NCBI GenBank assembly: GCA_963825135.1
Contig: CAWGRW010000009.1
Span: 544,001-608,000, forward strand
Length of the DNA: 64,000 nt
DNA from: an uncultured bacterium
GTDB taxonomy: Bacteria > Desulfobacterota_D > UBA1144 > Nemesobacterales > UBA2774
Direction: 5' to 3'
Position 1 is the stretch's first letter; every line of letters begins with the position of its first letter. Shown piece after piece: positions 9,833 to 17,882 of this stretch. The position numbers and the translations under genes were made by a program. The notes under the pieces are model-generated. The model saw only the letters and a program-made list of their open reading frames with translations, searched no databases and was not told the origin of the DNA.

Positions 9833-9950
9833 AACGTATACTTGCAATAATTCTAATAATCAAGGATTATTATGGTAGAGCTATAAACAAATATATTAAC
9901 AATGTTAAAGAACAATGCTAAAATAATTTTTTGAGAGGGGGATCCGAATA

Positions 9951-12707
9951 ATGGGGATAATAATCCGAGAATCGAAAGAACGGAGAAGGCATGAAAGAAT
10001 CCCTGTGGATTTTCATGTCTATTCGAAAAATTCCGGCAAGAAGATCGGGCAGGCGAAAGACCTCTCGTATAAAGGGCTATTCATACAAACTGAAGACGAG
10101 TTCAAGCCGGGAACTAAGCTCCTTCTCGAGTGTGATTTATCAGGCACGTTTCCCATCAAGGCCTACTGTGAAGTAAAGAGGCACGAAACAAACGGTACCG
10201 GCGAGCACGGTATCGGGGTCGAATTCATAAACATATACGATTCGGACAGGACGAAGTTAGAGAGCTATATCGAGAAAAGTAAAAATACCCTCAACTCCGA
10301 CGACTATTATCTATCCGACTTCGCGGACATCCCGGACGAGGACCTCTTTAAAAAGGCCGAAGTATTCTGGCAATACGGACTGGACATGGCGTCGAAGGGA
10401 TACATCAGATACAGAAGACCCCTGGCGTCGCCCTCGGCGCACAGAGTGATCATCGACGACGACTTCACCGGAAAGAAAAAAGAGATGATCATGATGGGCA
10501 GCAACAACTACCTCGGGCTCACATCCCATCCGAGGGTTATGAAAATAGCCAAAGAAAATATCGATAAATACGGCGCAGGCGCAGGCTCGGTGCCGCTCCT
10601 GGCCGGGTCGTTCGACATACACAGGCGGCTGGAGATGAAGCTGGCCGAGCTCAAGGGCGCAGAGGACGCGATAATCTTTCCGAGCGGATACGTTACGAAC
10701 CTCGGATGCATACAGGCGCTTGTTAAAAATGAGGACCTCGCGGTCATAGACAGGCTCGCCCACGCGAGCATCATCGACGGCTGTATGCTGTCCTCAGGCA
10801 CATTCAGGACATTCAAGCACTCGGACGTCCGGAGCCTCGAAAACGTATTAAAAAGAAATAGAGACAATTTTAAAGGAAGGATAGTTATAGTCGACGGCGT
10901 ATACAGCATGGACGGGGACATAGCCCCTCTCAGGCAGATCGCCGAGACGGCCCACAGGTACGGCGCCAAGGTTATGGTGGACGAGGCTCACGCCACAGGT
11001 GTCATTGGGGACAGGGGCAAGGGAACTCCCAGCCATTTTAAAATGAAGCCCGGAGAGATAGATATCGTTATGGGCACGCTGAGCAAATCCCTGGGCGGCG
11101 TCGGCGGATTCATAGCTTCGACGAAAGAAGTAGTGAGCTACCTGAGGTACTACACCAGGTCCTTTTTCTTCTCGTCCAATTTCCCCCCTTCCGTCGCGGC
11201 CTCGGTACTGGCCGCGATCGAGGTAATGGAAACGGATAAATCCATCCACGAAAACCTCTGGAAGAATATCAAGCACATGAAGGAAAACCTGAAATCAATG
11301 GGATTCAACACGGGGCAGACCGAGTCGGCGATCATCCCCGTTATGACCGGCGACGAGCTCACCCAGAAAAAGATGAGCAGGAGGTTCCATGAAGAGGGGA
11401 TATACGTAAACGCGATACCTCATCCCGCCGTGCCGAAAGGACATGAAAGGTTCAGGTTCAGCCTAATGGCCACACACACGCGCGAAGACATCGACAAGAC
11501 GCTCGAGGTTGTTGAAAAACTGGGAAGGGAATTCGGTATCATCGACAGACCGGTCTCTCTCTACGTGTCTGAAAATGACAAATACACCGTGAGAGAAATA
11601 TCTACCAAAGAGGAGATCGAAAAATCTGTCAGGTTCTCGTGGGGAGTGTACAAGGATTATCCCGCGTGGGTGCCTTACTTCCTGATAAAAGATCAGGTTA
11701 AGCTCGTTTCGAACGACTACTTCTACTTCAGAAAGGTCTACGGGAAGCGGTTCGTTGTGGAGGAAAAAGGAGAGATAGCGGGAACCGTAAGTGCGTTTAT
11801 CGACAATTACTACAACCGTTATCACGATACCAACGCAGGGTTCCTCGGGTTTTTCGAGGCCCTCCCTGAAAAACAGGAAGCTGTGGGACTGATGCTGAAG
11901 AAGGCGGAAGATTTCCTCACCGGCAACGGATGTACCGAGCTGCAAGGACCCGTGAACGGGATATTCGGTCTCTTCGGCGGCGGCCTGCTCTCGAGCAACT
12001 ACGGGAAGATACCGTCCTTCCTCCAGGTATACACCCAGCCCTACTACCACGACTATTTCACAAACGCGGGGTTCGGGCCGGTGAAAAAGCTCCTGCACTA
12101 CACTATAGACCTTAAATCGCCCGAGAACGTGGAAGCGATAATGAAATACTCTCGGGAATCGGCGCTGCAGGATATAAAGATAAGGCGAATGAACAAATCC
12201 GACTGGGAGAACGAGGTGAGGAGCGTGGTCAGGATTTTCAACAATTCCCTCGCTCAGCTCTGGGGCAATGTCCCGTTTGACGCCGACGAGTTCATAGAGA
12301 TCGCGGATGAATTCAAGAGCCTTATAGTTCCCGAATACTGGCTAATCGCGGAATCGGCCGGCGAAGCTATAGGCTTCATAGGGGGATTCCCCCAGTACGC
12401 TTCCGTATTCAGGGGCTTAAACGGGGAGATCAAGCCCCACAAGCTGGTGACGCTGCCCCTCCGGCTAAGAGGCATCAAGGAAGGCGTGTTAATGATCATG
12501 GGCCTCATGGACGAATTTAAGGGAAGGAGAATCGGCACCCTCCTCCTCAGCAGAGTCTGCGAGGCGATGATCGGGAACGGGTACGAAAAGGTAGCCGGCA
12601 CATGGGTTCTGGAAGATAACCTGGGCTCGCGGCGTATCGTGGAGAACCTGGGCGGCAAGGTAGATCTATACTGGGATATGTATTCGAAAACACCTGTTAC
12701 AGGCTGA
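9951..12707 (+). CDS. Fusion: PilZ + PLP-dependent alpha-oxoamine synthase (serine palmitoyltransferase-like) + YghO/bacterial ceramide synthase-like GNAT
   Basis: PilZ: RRHER (RxxxR, aa12-16) and DLSYKG (aa37-42). AOS: GSNNYLGL, AHASIIDG, DGVYSMDGD, DEAH, GTLSKS (K379), PAVP..ERFRFS. C-terminal part: VYKDYPAWVP, GFLGFFEA, LQGPVN, PYYHDYF, WVLEDN. Confidence 0.85.
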   Translation: MGIIIRESKERRRHERIPVDFHVYSKNSGKKIGQAKDLSYKGLFIQTEDEFKPGTKLLLECDLSGTFPIKAYCEVKRHETNGTGEHGIGVEFINIYDSDRTKLESYIEKSKNTLNSDDYYLSDFADIPDEDLFKKAEVFWQYGLDMASKGYIRYRRPLASPSAHRVIIDDDFTGKKKEMIMMGSNNYLGLTSHPRVMKIAKENIDKYGAGAGSVPLLAGSFDIHRRLEMKLAELKGAEDAIIFPSGYVTNLGCIQALVKNEDLAVIDRLAHASIIDGCMLSSGTFRTFKHSDVRSLENVLKRNRDNFKGRIVIVDGVYSMDGDIAPLRQIAETAHRYGAKVMVDEAHATGVIGDRGKGTPSHFKMKPGEIDIVMGTLSKSLGGVGGFIASTKEVVSYLRYYTRSFFFSSNFPPSVAASVLAAIEVMETDKSIHENLWKNIKHMKENLKSMGFNTGQTESAIIPVMTGDELTQKKMSRRFHEEGIYVNAIPHPAVPKGHERFRFSLMATHTREDIDKTLEVVEKLGREFGIIDRPVSLYVSENDKYTVREISTKEEIEKSVRFSWGVYKDYPAWVPYFLIKDQVKLVSNDYFYFRKVYGKRFVVEEKGEIAGTVSAFIDNYYNRYHDTNAGFLGFFEALPEKQEAVGLMLKKAEDFLTGNGCTELQGPVNGIFGLFGGGLLSSNYGKIPSFLQVYTQPYYHDYFTNAGFGPVKKLLHYTIDLKSPENVEAIMKYSRESALQDIKIRRMNKSDWENEVRSVVRIFNNSLAQLWGNVPFDADEFIEIADEFKSLIVPEYWLIAESAGEAIGFIGGFPQYASVFRGLNGEIKPHKLVTLPLRLRGIKEGVLMIMGLMDEFKGRRIGTLLLSRVCEAMIGNGYEKVAGTWVLEDNLGSRRIVENLGGKVDLYWDMYSKTPVTG

Positions 12708-12714
12708 TCTGATA

Positions 12715-15288
12715 ATGAATGAGAAACAGCTGACTATGCCGAAATACGGCACTGCGAACATACAGAAATCTGTATTCAGCATAGTTATATTTATTTTGCT
12801 GTTGTTTTGCATAGCAAACTTCGTTTTAGGCCTGAACTGGACAAATAAACCATATCCGGGATTTTTCTTCTATAGAAACCTCGTAATAACCGATATCTCT
12901 CCGAAGACAGTTGACGGAGATTCACTAAAAAGATTCAAAGACCAGATAAAGAAAGTTAATGGCATACCGGTCACAACACCGGGCGATGTATTCAACATAT
13001 TAGACGATCTCCCTGTAGGCACCGAGGTGGACTACACGATAGCGAGAAACAGCGGGACTTTCGATCTAAGAATCCCTATTGAGAGGTTCAGTTTAAAAGA
13101 ACTGCTCGTTATGTTCGGAATCGGATATGTAATCGGCATTGTCTTCCTCGCTATCGGCGTACTCGTCCTGTACAAGAAACCGAACATAAAGGCGAGTAAA
13201 GCGTTCTTCATATTCTGCGTGTCTATTTGTATATGGTTTGTTGGCTCGTTCGACGCGCAGGCCATCTATTTCTTCGACCAGCTGACTTTCTTCTCCTGGA
13301 TCTTCAGTCCGCTCTTCGGCATTTATCTGATGTTCATTTTTCCTTCTGATGCGCAGGTAAACGGAGTGACGCACACCGTCACTTCAATCCTGTTTTTATT
13401 TATCTCGGCAATGCTATTCGTCCTCCAATTCATCTTCTTCTACAACTATGAAATATGGAAATATGTCAATACCATAAGCTGGATTTACGTAGTCCTGAGC
13501 ACCATGATTTTCCCCATCTCTTCGCTCGTGACCTACATGCATCCGTCGTCGGCGCTTGAAAAACAACGCGCACAGATAATCTTGCTCGGCTGCATTTTCG
13601 GCCTCATCGCCCCGGCTTCGGTGGTGGCTTGCATCACGGTCTTTAAAATTAGCATGCCGTACAATCTGATGGCTCTCCCAGTGATAATATTCCCGGTGTC
13701 CATCGCATACTCCATAGTAAAACACAAGCTCTTCGACATAGACGTTATCATTGAAAAGGCGCTCACGTACGGACTCCTCACAGGAGCCGTCGGCGGCATC
13801 TTCGCCCTCACCGTGCTCGGATTCAATGTCGCATTCGCCAAATACGGGGGCTGGAAGAATCCCGCATTCTTCGTAATCCTGAGCGGGTTTCTCGTAATTG
13901 CGTTAAACCCCCTCAAAACCCGGATACAGGACCTGGTAGACCTGACCTTTTTCAGAAAGAAGTACGATTACAGGGGAACCGTCGAGGAAGTAAGCTATGC
14001 GATGACGTCCCTCCTGAGCCTCGACAAGATCATCGATAAGATCATCGATATAGTCGAAAGCACCATGTTCTCCACCCCTGTTACCGTATCCGTATACAAC
14101 CAGGACCTGGGGGCTTATGAGCGGTATTCCAAAGAGGGCGTCATCCAGAGCTCTCCCGATACGACGCTCGCGGAGGACAATATTCTCGTACAGCAGCTCA
14201 ATTTTCACGGAAACGAGATATTCAAGGAAGACCTTATAGCGGACGAGAGGTATATCCACAACTCCCAGAGACTCGTGAACGAATTCGAGAGATTCGGCGC
14301 ATCGCTCATCATTCCGCTTTTTTTCAAAAAACAACTCATCGGCTTCATAGCCCTCGGAGAAAAGAAGTCCGGACTCTCGTACACATCACGGGACGTGAAA
14401 CTCCTAAAGCTTCTCGCAAACCAGAGCGCTATAGCCATAGAAAACGCGCTCGCATTCAAGCTCGTCGAGGACTACGCCAAGAAGCTCGAAAAAACGAATA
14501 AGGAGCTCAAGGATGCGCAGATGCAGCTCGTGCATGCTGAAAAGATGTCCGCGATCGGACAGCTTGCCGCGGGCGTTGCCCACGAGATAAGGAACCCGCT
14601 GAACATCATCGAAGGCGCCAGGTACTACATCTCCACCTACATGATGGACAAAGAAAATACGGAGGTCGTCGGAGAGTACCTCGACTACATAAAACACGAG
14701 ATCGACAGGACGAACCGTCTGATAGACAGCCTGCTCAAGTTCTCAAAAGCCGAGCCGCCCTATTTCGAGAGGGTTAATATAAACAGCGTGCTCGAGAACG
14801 TCGTTATCCTCGTACGCAAGCAGCTCTCGGACAACAACATCAACCTCACCCAGAACCTGGACGAGAACATCCCTCCCATAATGGCGGACCCGAACCAGCT
14901 CTGGCAGGTATTCATAAACATTATTTTAAACGCGATACAAGCGATGCCGAAAGGCGGAGACTTCGTAATAGAGACTTCTACGCGCTGGGACGAATTCGCC
15001 AGCGGGGACTCCGGACACGTCTACATACATTTCAAAGACTCCGGAGTGGGAATAGATAAAGAAGACATGATGAGAATCTTCGATCCGTTCTTCACAAAGA
15101 AAGATATGGGGACGGGACTCGGGCTTTCGATAGCCTACAAGATCATCGAAAAGCATAAAGGAAGAATAATAGTTGAGAGCGAAAAGGGGCAAGGAACGGT
15201 ATTTACGATTGAACTTCCGTCAAATAACTATAATATTACTTCAGGAGAGGTTGATGACGAACACGAAAAAGAGGGTGCTGGTTGTTGA
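12715..15288 (+). CDS. Membrane sensor histidine kinase (TM, PDZ-like loop, multi-TM bundle, GAF, HisKA, HATPase)
   Basis: DQIKKVNGIPV...PVGTEVDYTIAR PDZ-like segment, about 9 hydrophobic helices, GAF (LIIPLF..LIGFIALGEKKSG..LANQSAIAIEN), H-box AHEIRNPL, NAIQAM, DSGVG, FFTKK, GTGLGL. Confidence 0.92.
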   Translation: MNEKQLTMPKYGTANIQKSVFSIVIFILLLFCIANFVLGLNWTNKPYPGFFFYRNLVITDISPKTVDGDSLKRFKDQIKKVNGIPVTTPGDVFNILDDLPVGTEVDYTIARNSGTFDLRIPIERFSLKELLVMFGIGYVIGIVFLAIGVLVLYKKPNIKASKAFFIFCVSICIWFVGSFDAQAIYFFDQLTFFSWIFSPLFGIYLMFIFPSDAQVNGVTHTVTSILFLFISAMLFVLQFIFFYNYEIWKYVNTISWIYVVLSTMIFPISSLVTYMHPSSALEKQRAQIILLGCIFGLIAPASVVACITVFKISMPYNLMALPVIIFPVSIAYSIVKHKLFDIDVIIEKALTYGLLTGAVGGIFALTVLGFNVAFAKYGGWKNPAFFVILSGFLVIALNPLKTRIQDLVDLTFFRKKYDYRGTVEEVSYAMTSLLSLDKIIDKIIDIVESTMFSTPVTVSVYNQDLGAYERYSKEGVIQSSPDTTLAEDNILVQQLNFHGNEIFKEDLIADERYIHNSQRLVNEFERFGASLIIPLFFKKQLIGFIALGEKKSGLSYTSRDVKLLKLLANQSAIAIENALAFKLVEDYAKKLEKTNKELKDAQMQLVHAEKMSAIGQLAAGVAHEIRNPLNIIEGARYYISTYMMDKENTEVVGEYLDYIKHEIDRTNRLIDSLLKFSKAEPPYFERVNINSVLENVVILVRKQLSDNNINLTQNLDENIPPIMADPNQLWQVFINIILNAIQAMPKGGDFVIETSTRWDEFASGDSGHVYIHFKDSGVGIDKEDMMRIFDPFFTKKDMGTGLGLSIAYKIIEKHKGRIIVESEKGQGTVFTIELPSNNYNITSGEVDDEHEKEGAGC

Positions 15289-17170
15289 CGACGAGCTCCT
15301 TATATTGAAAATCATTTCCGACATCCTGACCAAGGAGGGGTATGAAGTCGTAGTCGCCAATAACTGCGAGAAAGCGACCGAGTACCTGAGGGCGTCCAAT
15401 TTCAATGTAGTCTTGTCCGACATCAAAATGCCGGTAAAAAGCGGTATCGACCTTCTTGAGGAAATAAAGAAGAAAGACCCGAATATCCCCGTAATACTTA
15501 TGACCGGATTTGCTTCGTTGGAAACAGCGGTTGAGGCAGTACAGAACGGAGCCTTCGATTACCTCATTAAACCACTCGACTACGGGAAACTCAGGAGCGT
15601 CATAGACCACGCAGCCGATAGATTCGAACTCCACAGCGAAAACACGCGCCTGCTGAGCGATTTGAAAGAGCTGAACACGAATCTTGAATTGAAGGTCCGG
15701 GAAAGGAACAGGCAGCTTGAGAATACGCTGAATAGTACGATAGAGAGCATAATCACAACCGACAGGGACCTGATAATAGAATCAGCGAACCCGAAGACCT
15801 CGGAAATTTTCGGCAGAAGCTGCGTGGGCGAAAAACTGAGTCTCTTATTTCAGGGTGTTAATTTTGACACAATTATTCCAAACATTCTAAGCGACCCCTC
15901 ATATTCGACGAAGCACGAAATAAGATACGACAATAAGTTCCTCGAAGTTAGCCTGTCGCCCCTGATCGATTTTGAGACGAAAGAAATTTTCGGCGTGATA
16001 GCAGCGACGGAAGACATAACGGAGAAGAAGAAGCTCGAAGCGCAGCTCATACATTCCGCGAAGATGTCGGGTGTCGGCCAGCTGGCCGCCGGCGTCGCAC
16101 ACGAATTCAATAATATCTTGTCAGGCATCATAGGCTACACGAGCCTCGCGCTCACGAGGCAGGACCTGGACAGCGTCAGGAAAGACCTGAGAGTAATCGA
16201 GAAGGCCTCCGACAGGGCGGTCGAGATAGTGAACAAACTCCTTTCCTTCTCAAGACAAAAAGGGGAGAAATTCCAGGTCGCACAGATAGAGAGCATCATA
16301 GACGACGCGCTCGGACTCGTTGAGCACAACTTCGAAACGGAGGGTATAAGAATACTCAGGAGTTACGAAAAGGTCCCCGCCATCCGATTGAATCCGGGGG
16401 AGATACAGCAGGTGTTCCTGAACCTCGCGATCAACTCGAAACACGCCATGCCTAAAGGCGGAGCGATAGCGATCAGCACGAAGCTCTCCGGCAATTATGT
16501 GAGAATCGATTTCTCCGATACGGGCATTGGCGTATCACCGGAGAACCTGCCCAGGATATTCGAACCCTTTTTCACGACAAAACTGAGCGAGGGCACAAAA
16601 TCCGGCACGGGTCTCGGTCTGTCGGTAATATACGCGATCATAGAAAGACACGGCGGGCGCATCGAAGTATCGAGCGAGGTCAATAAAGGCACGACGTTCA
16701 CGATTCACCTGCCGAACATTCAGGCCATTGCCAAAACTCCCGAGATCGAGCCCGCTCAGAAAGTACAGAACGCCAAAGTAATCGAAATGAGGCGAAAAGG
16801 GAATGTCTTGATAGTCGATGACGAAGAATTCATCAGAGATATCGTAAGTGATTGCCTTTCCAGCACCGGACACAATGTTATGACGGCTGAAAGCGGCGAC
16901 CAGGCGATCGAGCTCATAAAGAGGAATCATTTCGACATCACGTTCCTCGATTTCTCCATGCCTAATAAAAGCGGTCTCGAACTTCTGAGAGAAATAAAAG
17001 TTATCGATCCCAACTCCACGGTGGTAATAATAAGCTCGAGACCGGAAGAGCAGCTCCCGGACGAGCTTTCGGACGAGGGCTCGTACAATATAATTAAGAA
17101 ACCGTTCTCGGTCGACCAGATTCAAAACGCGGTCTCCAGGGTTCTTGGGGCCGAGGCGATGAGCAGATAA
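15254..17170 (+). CDS. Hybrid sensor kinase/response regulator (REC-PAS-HisKA-HATPase-REC)
   Basis: VLVVDDE/SDIKMP/LIKP receiver, PAS-like middle, AHEFNNIL H-box, GTGLGL, second receiver IVDDE/LDFSMP/KKPF. Start set at ATG 15254 after GGAGAGG; overlaps the upstream kinase by 35 nt. Confidence 0.92.
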   Translation: MTNTKKRVLVVDDELLILKIISDILTKEGYEVVVANNCEKATEYLRASNFNVVLSDIKMPVKSGIDLLEEIKKKDPNIPVILMTGFASLETAVEAVQNGAFDYLIKPLDYGKLRSVIDHAADRFELHSENTRLLSDLKELNTNLELKVRERNRQLENTLNSTIESIITTDRDLIIESANPKTSEIFGRSCVGEKLSLLFQGVNFDTIIPNILSDPSYSTKHEIRYDNKFLEVSLSPLIDFETKEIFGVIAATEDITEKKKLEAQLIHSAKMSGVGQLAAGVAHEFNNILSGIIGYTSLALTRQDLDSVRKDLRVIEKASDRAVEIVNKLLSFSRQKGEKFQVAQIESIIDDALGLVEHNFETEGIRILRSYEKVPAIRLNPGEIQQVFLNLAINSKHAMPKGGAIAISTKLSGNYVRIDFSDTGIGVSPENLPRIFEPFFTTKLSEGTKSGTGLGLSVIYAIIERHGGRIEVSSEVNKGTTFTIHLPNIQAIAKTPEIEPAQKVQNAKVIEMRRKGNVLIVDDEEFIRDIVSDCLSSTGHNVMTAESGDQAIELIKRNHFDITFLDFSMPNKSGLELLREIKVIDPNSTVVIISSRPEEQLPDELSDEGSYNIIKKPFSVDQIQNAVSRVLGAEAMSR

Positions 17171-17186: not shown

Positions 17187-17549
17187 ATGGAAGACGCTCC
17201 TTCTTTTTACTGCAAAATATTCGTAAACGAAAACGAGATATATTCGGGAGACTTCGGGGAAGTCCCCGAGAAGTTCAGGACCGGCATGGTCAGGGACCTG
17301 TCGGAATGGGCGGGATCGCTCGGCAAGAGGGGCCTGAACGAGCTCATTTATTCACACCTCGCCTGGTATGAAGAAAAGGGTCAATATTGCGAGGAGTGCG
17401 GAACGTGGAAGGCGGAAAGCGGTGTGAAAGAGTGCGGCGAGTGCGGAAAAAAGCTGAAAGAACGTTATATTTATGAGCGGGAGAAGAGGCTCGACATGAT
17501 TATCACCTGTGTGGGAATGATATCAGGAGTGCAAATTTCAGCAGCTTAG
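17187..17549 (+). CDS. Hypothetical protein with Cys4 zinc ribbon
   Basis: CEEC...CGEC; starts 16 nt after the hybrid kinase stop. Confidence 0.65.
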   Translation: MEDAPSFYCKIFVNENEIYSGDFGEVPEKFRTGMVRDLSEWAGSLGKRGLNELIYSHLAWYEEKGQYCEECGTWKAESGVKECGECGKKLKERYIYEREKRLDMIITCVGMISGVQISAA

Positions 17550-17591
17550 AACGGAAGCCTGACGACAGGCGCAATTCAATAGGGGTCGAAA

Positions 17592-17882
17592 ATGAAATTA
17601 ACAGTTAAAGGTCAGATTTTTCCCGGGGTCTGGAAGATCGCGGATAGCGTCAGGAAACTGAGAGACGACAGAAAGCCCGTTAATATAGGATCCGGGACGG
17701 TCGGATTTCCCGTCTATGAAGTGGACCTCCCGGACAATACCAGAAAAGAGGGTCTATACTTTGTGACTCCGGAGGGCACAAGACTCTACTTTAACCCTGG
17801 CGATCAGTATCAGGTCGGCTACCTGATATCCGAAACCGACAGCGACCCGCTGCGAGAAAAACATTTTAAAGGGACCGCATAA
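17592..17882 (+). CDS. Hypothetical protein (96 aa)
   Basis: AGGGG SD before ATG; fills the gap; no motif recognised. Confidence 0.6.
   Translation: MKLTVKGQIFPGVWKIADSVRKLRDDRKPVNIGSGTVGFPVYEVDLPDNTRKEGLYFVTPEGTRLYFNPGDQYQVGYLISETDSDPLREKHFKGTA

Follow-up and report, generated by a model that had tools for sequence, protein, structure and literature searches.

This report concerns a putative signalling operon in a 64,000-nucleotide stretch of DNA from an uncultured bacterium of the Desulfobacterota_D (GenBank assembly GCA_963825135.1, contig CAWGRW010000009.1, positions 544,001 to 608,000), referred to below as the window. An aptamer for cyclic di-GMP (c-di-GMP) precedes the gene for a synthase in which a PilZ domain, an alpha-oxoamine synthase (AOS) domain and a tandem GNAT domain are joined in one chain, and this gene is followed by those for a sensor histidine kinase and a hybrid kinase. 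The features are given here in window coordinates (aa, amino acids; TM, transmembrane segment; PLP, pyridoxal 5'-phosphate).

9692..9720, + strand: promoter-like site of the sigma-70 type upstream of the aptamer (9/12; consensus match alone, visible in an alignment of 10 upstream regions)
9740..9831, + strand: aptamer of a c-di-GMP-I riboswitch, 120 nt ahead of the synthase start codon (Rfam RF01051; 78.2 bits against a cut-off of 35)
9896..9924, + strand: second promoter-like site, after the aptamer (10/12 with an extended -10; consensus match alone), which would bypass the riboswitch
9951..12707, + strand: tri-domain synthase gene, 918 aa, a single uninterrupted open reading frame (ORF) without a transmembrane segment
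9978..10274, + strand: PilZ domain (aa 10-108; Pfam, motifs) with R12xxxR16 and D37xS39xxG42
10284..11555, + strand: AOS domain with N-terminal extension (aa 112-535)
10590-10592, + strand: selectivity residue V214, within the AOS domain
11085-11087, + strand: PLP lysine K379, within the AOS domain
11583..12695, + strand: YghO/bCerS-like tandem GNAT domain (aa 545-915)
12715..15288, + strand: sensor histidine kinase, 857 aa, 7 nt behind the synthase, with the layout TM, PDZ, seven-transmembrane (7TM) bundle, two helices, GAF, HisKA (His623), HATPase
12745..13734, + strand: variable sensor module, kinase aa 11-340, comprising the first helix, PDZ and the seven-helix bundle (model pLDDT 80)
15254..17170, + strand: hybrid kinase REC-PAS-HisKA-HATPase-REC, likely start 15254 (longest ORF from 15173), overlapping the end of the sensor kinase

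An earlier reading of this DNA, made from the sequence only, had described one uninterrupted 918-aa ORF with three fused domains, and this is borne out. Pfam finds PilZ at aa 10-108 (54.7 bits, cut-off 22.5), Aminotran_1_2 at aa 178-520 and the GNAT family Acetyltransf_1 at aa 791-901, the AlphaFold model has three folded domains (mean pLDDT 79), and 40 full-length homologues, with at least 94% query coverage and 42-98% identity, are found among the 120 homologues listed of 321. The fusion, which the same reading had proposed to look for in reads and relatives, occurs whole in relatives, and each of the joints PilZ/AOS, AOS/GNAT and synthase/kinase is spanned by contig pieces from public runs; the whole stretch is in no single piece, and one of the bridging runs, X1, is possibly related to the source of the window. 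Full-length homologues and joint-bridging pieces together rule out an assembly chimera. The relatives' labels (8/13 loci) are mostly those of Candidatus Dadabacteria or Thermodesulfobacteriota metagenome-assembled genomes; two loci with the same gene order, L005 and L006, are labelled Spirochaetia, a label that is probably wrong as their sequence and gene order are Dadabacteria-like. On the strength of these relatives the window is assigned to Dadabacteria. A metagenome scan (best 80 of 344) added one further full operon (L055) and many AOS-YghO pairs. Related AOS domains also occur in other arrangements, namely REC-AOS (P0085, P0091), acyl-AMP ligase-acyl carrier protein (ACP)-AOS (P0088) and phosphopantetheinyl transferase (PPTase)-like-AOS (P0083, P0087), and in P0074 PilZ-AOS is fused to a FemAB-like GNAT.

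At the N-terminus, the PilZ domain, one of two PilZ matches in the genome, has R12xxxR16 and D37xS39xxG42 on its predicted barrel. These correspond to RxxxR and D/NxSxxG, the c-di-GMP motifs of PilZ receptors, and the earlier statement that both are kept stands. In an alignment of 39 full-length synthases, from which P0002 and P0034 were left out, R12, R16, G42 and K379 are invariant (39/39) and S39 is nearly so.

At the other end, the last 377 aa align end to end with YghO of E. coli BL21 (24% identity over 376 aa, E 7e-37; profile score 171 bits), in agreement with the YghO/bCerS-like character given to this domain in the sequence-only reading. This is the only YghO homologue in the genome, and the only AOS proteins are the synthase and BioF. 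In an unrooted GNAT tree, the rows of which do not include Caulobacter bCerS, the 22 YghO-like proteins that stand alone are separated from the eight GNATs of fusions or operons, which share a single long branch (100/100).

On sequence and predicted fold, the middle domain is a member of the alpha-oxoamine synthase family of fold-type I PLP enzymes. Residues K379, H271, D344, H347 and R500, the catalytic Lys and the conserved His, Asp, His and Arg of the family, are invariant in the 39 aligned proteins, and the model matches PDB 7POA and 8GUH with a TM-score of about 0.9 over the target. The proposal that decarboxylative condensation and then N-acylation are encoded in one chain is supported.

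The AOS domain falls below the cut-off of every NCBIfam AOS model, the best result being 409/535 (score/cut-off). The three Spt models gave 379/640, 345/500 and 291/670, with E. coli Spt reaching 599/500 as a control, the BioF/Kbl models 390/426, 395/460 and 409/535, and the autoinducer-synthase model NF005526 208 against 428. In a 49-row AOS tree, in which the sole characterised Spt is that of E. coli on a long branch, this protein and nine metagenomic ones form a clade (100/99) without the window, which lies within a 29-row clade of uncharacterised AOS (97/96); both clades sit inside a 44-row clade (99/99) with Kbl and BioF outside. The window AOS is therefore nearer to Spt than to Kbl or BioF, yet is not a member of Spt, since it occupies a separate subclade. 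To that extent the earlier label of Spt-like AOS is correct, and it goes too far in so far as the domain lies outside the Spt clade; the GTLSKS motif that had been cited for it is present but not diagnostic, because the corresponding residues are ATLSKA in T. thermophilus AONS/Kbl and GTLSKA in the BioF of this genome. BioF or Kbl identity was considered and rejected: the model cut-offs are missed, the genome has its own BioF (its second AOS) in a bioB-bioA-like cluster identified from the printed sequences, and the tree places the window apart. V214 aligns with V79 of ThAOS, a position that governs selectivity and is occupied by Val in Kbl but by Ser in both Spt and AONS (PMC11906848).

Among ten stand-alone AOS genes adjoining a YghO gene, seven score 552-674 on the Bacteroidota Spt model and three score 315-331. 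Five loci (L101, L122, L123, L126 and L132) have a non-Spt AOS, with Ser and then Pro at the gate, clustered with a YghO gene and lipid-like genes; this AOS belongs to the same wider clade, and these loci are perhaps a genuine sphingolipid variant.

The gene that most consistently accompanies the synthase is that of the sensor kinase. We searched 120 genomes of the phylum and found PilZ-AOS in 35, the GNAT domain in 27, and an orthologous sensor in 38 at E below 1e-100 (42 at 1e-30). Sensor and PilZ-AOS share a contig in 34 of the 35 PilZ-AOS genomes, the exception being at a contig edge with no sensor match; conversely, 37 of the 38 sensor genomes have the synthase or a contig-end fragment of it. 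Only four sensor genomes are without a whole synthase, three of which have such fragments; the fourth, L148, is taken up below. Eleven loci encode a two-domain PilZ-AOS without the GNAT, and ten of these extend to the sensor kinase. The slot between the two genes then holds a short-chain dehydrogenase/reductase (SDR) in L137 and L145, a methyltransferase in L138 and L146, a Zn dehydrogenase in L140, an SDR remnant in L139 and an unassigned ORF in L142, and it is empty in L141, L143 and L144. Because the contents vary in this way, the slot is one for tailoring functions, and in the window the fused GNAT fills it: what stays constant beside the AOS is the sensor kinase, and the GNAT is optional. 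Methyltransferase-AOS fusions are also present among the listed homologues (P0100, P0108).

In 8 of the 10 two-domain loci that reach the kinase, the upstream region includes a gene for an outer-membrane barrel, and in L049 this gene is situated between a PilZ-less AOS and a separate GNAT. The operon-associated barrel P0142 is alginate-export-like in its predicted structure, and two homologues are encoded elsewhere in the genome of the window (G000:C9:1063848-1065413 and 262384-263967). The synthase itself occurs once, at a chromosomal site that is fixed and in most cases next to aroC.

The modelled sensor N-terminus begins with one helix, continues with a PDZ domain and then a seven-helix bundle (aa 132-340), and ends in two further helices; the PDZ domain is predicted by topology to face outside. 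A receptor fold search returned solely PDZ domains and generic seven-helix bundles (Z 11-14), with no ligand indicated, and Pfam and NCBIfam scans gave no match to the six-helix sensor of CqsS/LqsS, without direct comparison to CqsS. The hybrid kinase stands behind the sensor kinase in related loci as well, and in most of them it is followed by two small genes, which in the window (17187-17882) encode a 120-aa zinc-ribbon protein and a 96-aa protein. Another synthase-sensor arrangement was seen in the metagenome scan at L061:1817-6720, where a ketosynthase, an ACP, an AOS and a HisKA_7TM-GAF kinase stand in a row.

Comparison of the window with L048, from the same genus, provides further insight into this partnership, as the two differ over one tract.

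10050..13700, + strand: exchangeable cassette, of which L048 carries another allele; at the DNA level the two are 44-64% identical within it and about 74-88% identical in the coding sequence on either side

The two genomes are 85-96% identical in aroC, dnaB, the later kinase domains and the hybrid kinase, but identity falls to 38-54% for the synthase and to 28-40% for the sensor. In L048 the G+C content is 0.42/0.35 inside the tract and 0.54/0.50 outside, and the right end of the tract (about 13700) coincides with the end of the seven-helix bundle; the riboswitch is outside it. Exchange pairs total seven. Identities of hybrid kinase/sensor/AOS are 90/36/52 for window-L048, 88/43/58 for L050-L044, 97/40/48 for L143-L146 and 76/33/50 for L051-L047, four pairs in which the whole synthase and the sensor are exchanged; in L137-L140 they are 95/48/90 and the slot gene differs; and in L005-L006 (97/63/96), as in L002-L011, the differences are limited to the second GNAT half (from about aa 720) and the sensor. 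Thus in seven genome pairs the enzyme module and the sensor domain diverge jointly, and the kinase core does not. Window-L002, window-L003, L137-L139 and L006-L008 served as control pairs without exchange.

Trees of 18 loci, drawn without the truncated or frameshifted L001, L004, L007, L009, L010, L012 and L053, are consistent with this. The five loci of type B group as a single clade in the AOS, GNAT and sensor trees (100/100 for the sensor), the GAF, kinase core and hybrid kinase trees follow taxonomy, and GAF plus kinase core rejects the type-B clade (approximately unbiased test, p 9e-8, for a group chosen after seeing the data). After allowing for the core, sensor and AOS identities are correlated with a partial r of 0.92 in these loci and 0.70 in a 27-locus set that leaves out L142 and L147 (contig ends), values that kinship inflates. 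Type-diagnostic sites number 18 in the sensor and none in GAF plus core. Between types A and B the synthase differs at 32 positions, of which several lie within conserved AOS motifs, and the gate position of the AOS is Ala in type C. In L050 a type-C AOS is accompanied by a GNAT, and the sensor clusters with those of GNAT-bearing loci, not with those of the other type-C loci. From these observations we conclude that genomes exchange the enzyme and the sensor together, as a single block.

The link to c-di-GMP that had been proposed from the PilZ domain is supported and, in effect, doubled by the upstream riboswitch, which the sequence-only reading did not include. Its position is kept in 10/10 and 7/9 related loci (one of the misses being a contig end), and three of ten two-domain PilZ-AOS loci have a riboswitch between the AOS and the following gene. 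Three promoter-like sites were found against 0.8 expected; no intrinsic terminator was found, and no telling fold (z -1.7). At the protein level, we infer from the PilZ motifs that the enzyme may be gated allosterically by c-di-GMP. Repeated TTGCA elements, possibly binding sites for the operon's own regulator, are conserved around the aptamer (9700-9870), and a further promoter-like TTGCAA-17-GAT(T/A)AT stands behind it.

The genome has ten c-di-GMP-I aptamers and five GGDEF domains. In GGDEF domains of the Hypr type a Ser takes the place of the canonical Asp (PMC6456294). All five domains have Asp at what is probably this position, and no Hypr-type GGDEF that would point to signalling by cyclic GMP-AMP (cGAMP) was seen in the genome. 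Other riboswitch-led genes resemble, by eye on the printed sequences, those for type IV pili, polysaccharide export and secreted proteins, which would fit a surface or biofilm programme. By the same means, riboswitches at G000:C9:1674752 (+), 2164259 (+) and 2471061 (-) were seen before pilM/N/O-like genes, a polysaccharide export-like cluster and a 919-aa gene respectively, and one at G000:C9:2332743-2332828 (-) before a subtilisin-type peptidase-like gene and a 63-aa ORF, a neighbourhood that recalls cyanobactin-type protease clusters.

Because of the constant association and joint exchange of enzyme and sensor, we propose, with reasonable though far from full confidence, that the window encodes a c-di-GMP-gated synthase of an N-acyl aminoketone signal together with its own receptor, product and ligand both being predictions. 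The PLP domain would condense a small amino acid with acyl-CoA or acyl-ACP, with loss of CO2, to give an alpha-aminoketone, and V214 would make glycine or alanine a likelier substrate than serine. The YghO-like domain would then N-acylate the aminoketone, and the N-acyl aminoketone so formed, chemically an analogue of a 1-deoxy-3-keto-ceramide, would be bound by the PDZ/7TM module of the adjacent kinase, from which the signal would pass by phosphotransfer to the hybrid kinase. In this scheme c-di-GMP would act twice, on expression through the riboswitch and on activity through the PilZ domain. Relatives would finish the aminoketone otherwise, by reduction, by methylation or with no tailoring, and lineages would swap enzyme and receptor modules together, giving rise to signal dialects (pherotypes). 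The locus suggests undescribed chemical signalling with several dialects, rather than membrane-lipid synthesis. That these loci make up a new family of cell-to-cell signals, with ceramide-like N-acyl aminoketones and their reduced or methylated relatives, a c-di-GMP-activated synthase, PDZ/7TM receptor kinases and cassette-swapped pherotypes, is a wider proposal which we put forward tentatively, with belief falling somewhat short of doubt.

Several observations weigh against this proposal. Enzyme and sensor are adjacent, so that a single recombination tract carries both, and linkage explains some of the co-inheritance; moreover the statistics overstate the case, since the pairs and the type-B group were picked post hoc and the genomes are related. 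The PDZ region is only 62-64% identical in window-L002 without a change in the synthase, and in L139 the SDR is lost with the sensor still 93% like that of L137. The sensor family is large (622 representatives at 1e-30), and sensor paralogues adjoin ftsY without a synthase. The L049 AOS lacks PilZ. In L148 (L148:5972-7084, G015) an S-adenosylmethionine-dependent methyltransferase, which starts with a remnant of the AOS N-terminal linker, replaces the synthase behind the riboswitch. Orphan sensor kinases adjoin aroC with none of the operon's enzymes adjacent in L149 (L149:7447-9969, G031) and L150 (L150:4011-4514, G030). His replaces the catalytic Lys K379 in the PilZ-AOS at L138:3900-5552 (G004), represented by P0062. 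Finally, ThAOS, with Val at the gate, uses Gly, Ala and Ser (PMC11906848), so V214 shifts the odds, with serine as a less likely substrate.

Some of these loci merit separate mention. L149 is without the hybrid kinase also, and G031 has a full operon elsewhere; the orphan sensors of L149 and L150 are candidates for eavesdropping receptors. P0062 stands for a cluster of 14 sequences, and in L138 its gene is followed by a riboswitch and the methyltransferase; this synthase is possibly inactive yet kept in the operon.

An alternative is that the product is a minor membrane amino-lipid monitored by the 7TM kinase of the same cell, for homeostasis or feedback and with no role between cells. This would explain co-occurrence and co-variation equally well, a diacyl product could be too hydrophobic for diffusion, and lipid-binding seven-helix proteins are among the many that the predicted bundle resembles (at Z 11-14, scores generic for helical bundles). 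It does not clearly account, however, for whole alleles being exchanged repeatedly between genera or for the existence of orphan receptors, and the outside-facing PDZ of the predicted topology and the upstream barrel gene in 8 of 10 two-domain loci also argue against it; we regard it as unlikely, though as the best of the alternatives.

The ceramide reading of the fusion, to which the sequence-only reading had led, would make it an Spt-bCerS enzyme for an envelope (1-deoxy)ceramide under c-di-GMP control, with the kinases as mere neighbours. The full-length YghO homology and the wider clade shared with Spt favour it, as does the fact that the genome has no other YghO homologue and no other AOS besides BioF. 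Precedents are also at hand: ECD_02850 (YghO) is the proposed N-acyltransferase of the BL21 sphingolipid cluster (PMC9386255), Spt and bCerS work consecutively in the cytoplasm (PMC11087976), and Spt-like proteins outside the known clade have been proposed as producers, including of 1-deoxyceramides in Desulfobacterota (PMC11334938). Nevertheless this reading is weak. The AOS misses all three Spt cut-offs, lies outside the Spt clade and has Val at the gate; the fused GNATs stand on their own long branch apart from the 22 stand-alone proteins, and the 11 two-domain loci have no GNAT beside the AOS while 10 of them keep the kinase. In the locus, a Pfam scan and an E. coli CerR query turned up neither an ACP nor an acyl-ACP synthetase nor any close CerR. 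Against the genome, which is 94% complete, this one query gave best E values of 6e-17, 7e-16 and 1e-11; the CerR threshold in PMC11334938 is 1e-30, for another program and database size. The upstream HpnA-like reductase (7502-8485) is not supported as a CerR, as it matches the E. coli reductase weakly (E 1e-11), accompanies aroC even without a downstream synthase and is outside the exchanged tract. As the exchange of the sensor together with the enzymes is also left unexplained, we consider membrane sphingolipid synthesis quite unlikely.

A metabolite that inhibits competitors or predators, with the kinase sensing it or related compounds and inducing its production or protection from it, would likewise predict diversifying exchange of enzyme and sensor and would be in keeping with variable tailoring genes; but no transporter or immunity-like gene accompanies the cassette in the loci examined, and the synthase is a single copy at a fixed site, mostly beside aroC, which makes such antagonism very unlikely. 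Least probable of all is that the sensor binds an unrelated ligand, such as a peptide via PDZ, and diversifies alone with the adjacent enzymes carried along: every tract does include the sensor with a differing leftward reach, its PDZ varies without synthase change, and orphan sensors and paralogues occur, but the left ends fall at module borders (gene start, AOS end, start of the second GNAT half), the right ends fall within or at the end of the 7TM bundle and never enter the kinase core, and adjacency is kept in 34/35 genomes across several families.

If the signalling proposal is correct, c-di-GMP would be tied directly to the making of an extracellular signal, at both the RNA and the enzyme level, in an uncultured lineage; a signal synthase would be under direct second-messenger control, a large family of orphan receptors would have its first ligand class, and sphingolipid-type enzymes would have been re-used for communication. 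The allele series (types A, B and C, with reductase, dehydrogenase, methyltransferase or acyltransferase slots) constitutes a natural set of matched and mismatched enzyme-receptor pairs, with which signal and specificity are testable in E. coli without culturing the organism. Homology to Spt and bCerS alone can, by the same token, over-count sphingolipid producers in metagenomes.

No description of the system was found in the full-text literature searched (result listings, with most subscription journals outside), and the Spt-tree supplements of PMC11334938 may contain these proteins. In the available text of PMC10519070, a review of c-di-GMP receptors, a term search gave no passage on a fusion of the PilZ-AOS type. 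Among known systems, the ceramide pathway Spt-bCerS-CerR of Caulobacter and of E. coli BL21 (ECD_02850-02854) employs both of these enzyme families, acting in the order proposed here (PMC11087976, PMC9386255, PMC11334938). The window differs from it in being fused, PilZ-capped and outside the Spt clade, with Val and not Ser at the gate, in having a locus without a dedicated ACP, acyl-ACP synthetase or CerR, and in that the GNAT is optional and the sensor kinase constant. The closest matches of the AOS in sequence and fold, at 37-38% identity, are ThAOS (T. thermophilus AONS/Kbl, PDB 7POA) and Sphingobacterium Spt (PDB 3A2B/8GUH), stand-alone enzymes without the PilZ, GNAT and partner kinase that the window AOS has.

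The alpha-hydroxyketone quorum sensing systems CqsA/CqsS of Vibrio and LqsA/LqsS/LqsR of Legionella are likewise pairs of a PLP-dependent AOS-family synthase and a membrane sensor kinase encoded with it (PMC3376566). According to the portion of that paper available, they share with the window a candidate receptor formed by the N-terminal helices of the kinase, aminoketone intermediates and a possible later reduction. The window receptor, however, is modelled as TM-PDZ-7TM-GAF with a separate hybrid kinase and is apparently unlike the six-helix CqsS, the window AOS scores 208 against the 428 cut-off of the CqsA/LqsA-type autoinducer-synthase model, and for CqsA/LqsA systems the same portion makes no mention of a PilZ fusion, a riboswitch, an N-acylating domain, a variable tailoring slot or an exchanged cassette. 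In CPR bacteria, CqsA homologues stand beside sensor kinases in 51 cases, from which signalling was proposed from genomes alone (PMC7567580); those sensors match the CqsS profile, in contrast to the predicted PDZ and seven-helix bundle of the window, and neither PilZ nor Dadabacteria occurs in the main text of that paper as available (0 occurrences each). In the pattern of variation the nearest likeness is to the comQXPA pherotypes of Bacillus, where the variable part of ComP is its N-terminal sensor, and where the signal-making module and the multi-helix sensor of the adjacent kinase co-vary while the cytoplasmic kinase is conserved (PMC4008528). ComX is a prenylated peptide and the predicted signal of the window an enzyme-made small acyl-aminoketone; the likeness to ComP is an analogy in pattern. 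By such analogies, the system is CqsA/CqsS-like in its logic and comQXP-like in its variation, and is a member of neither family, nor of Spt.

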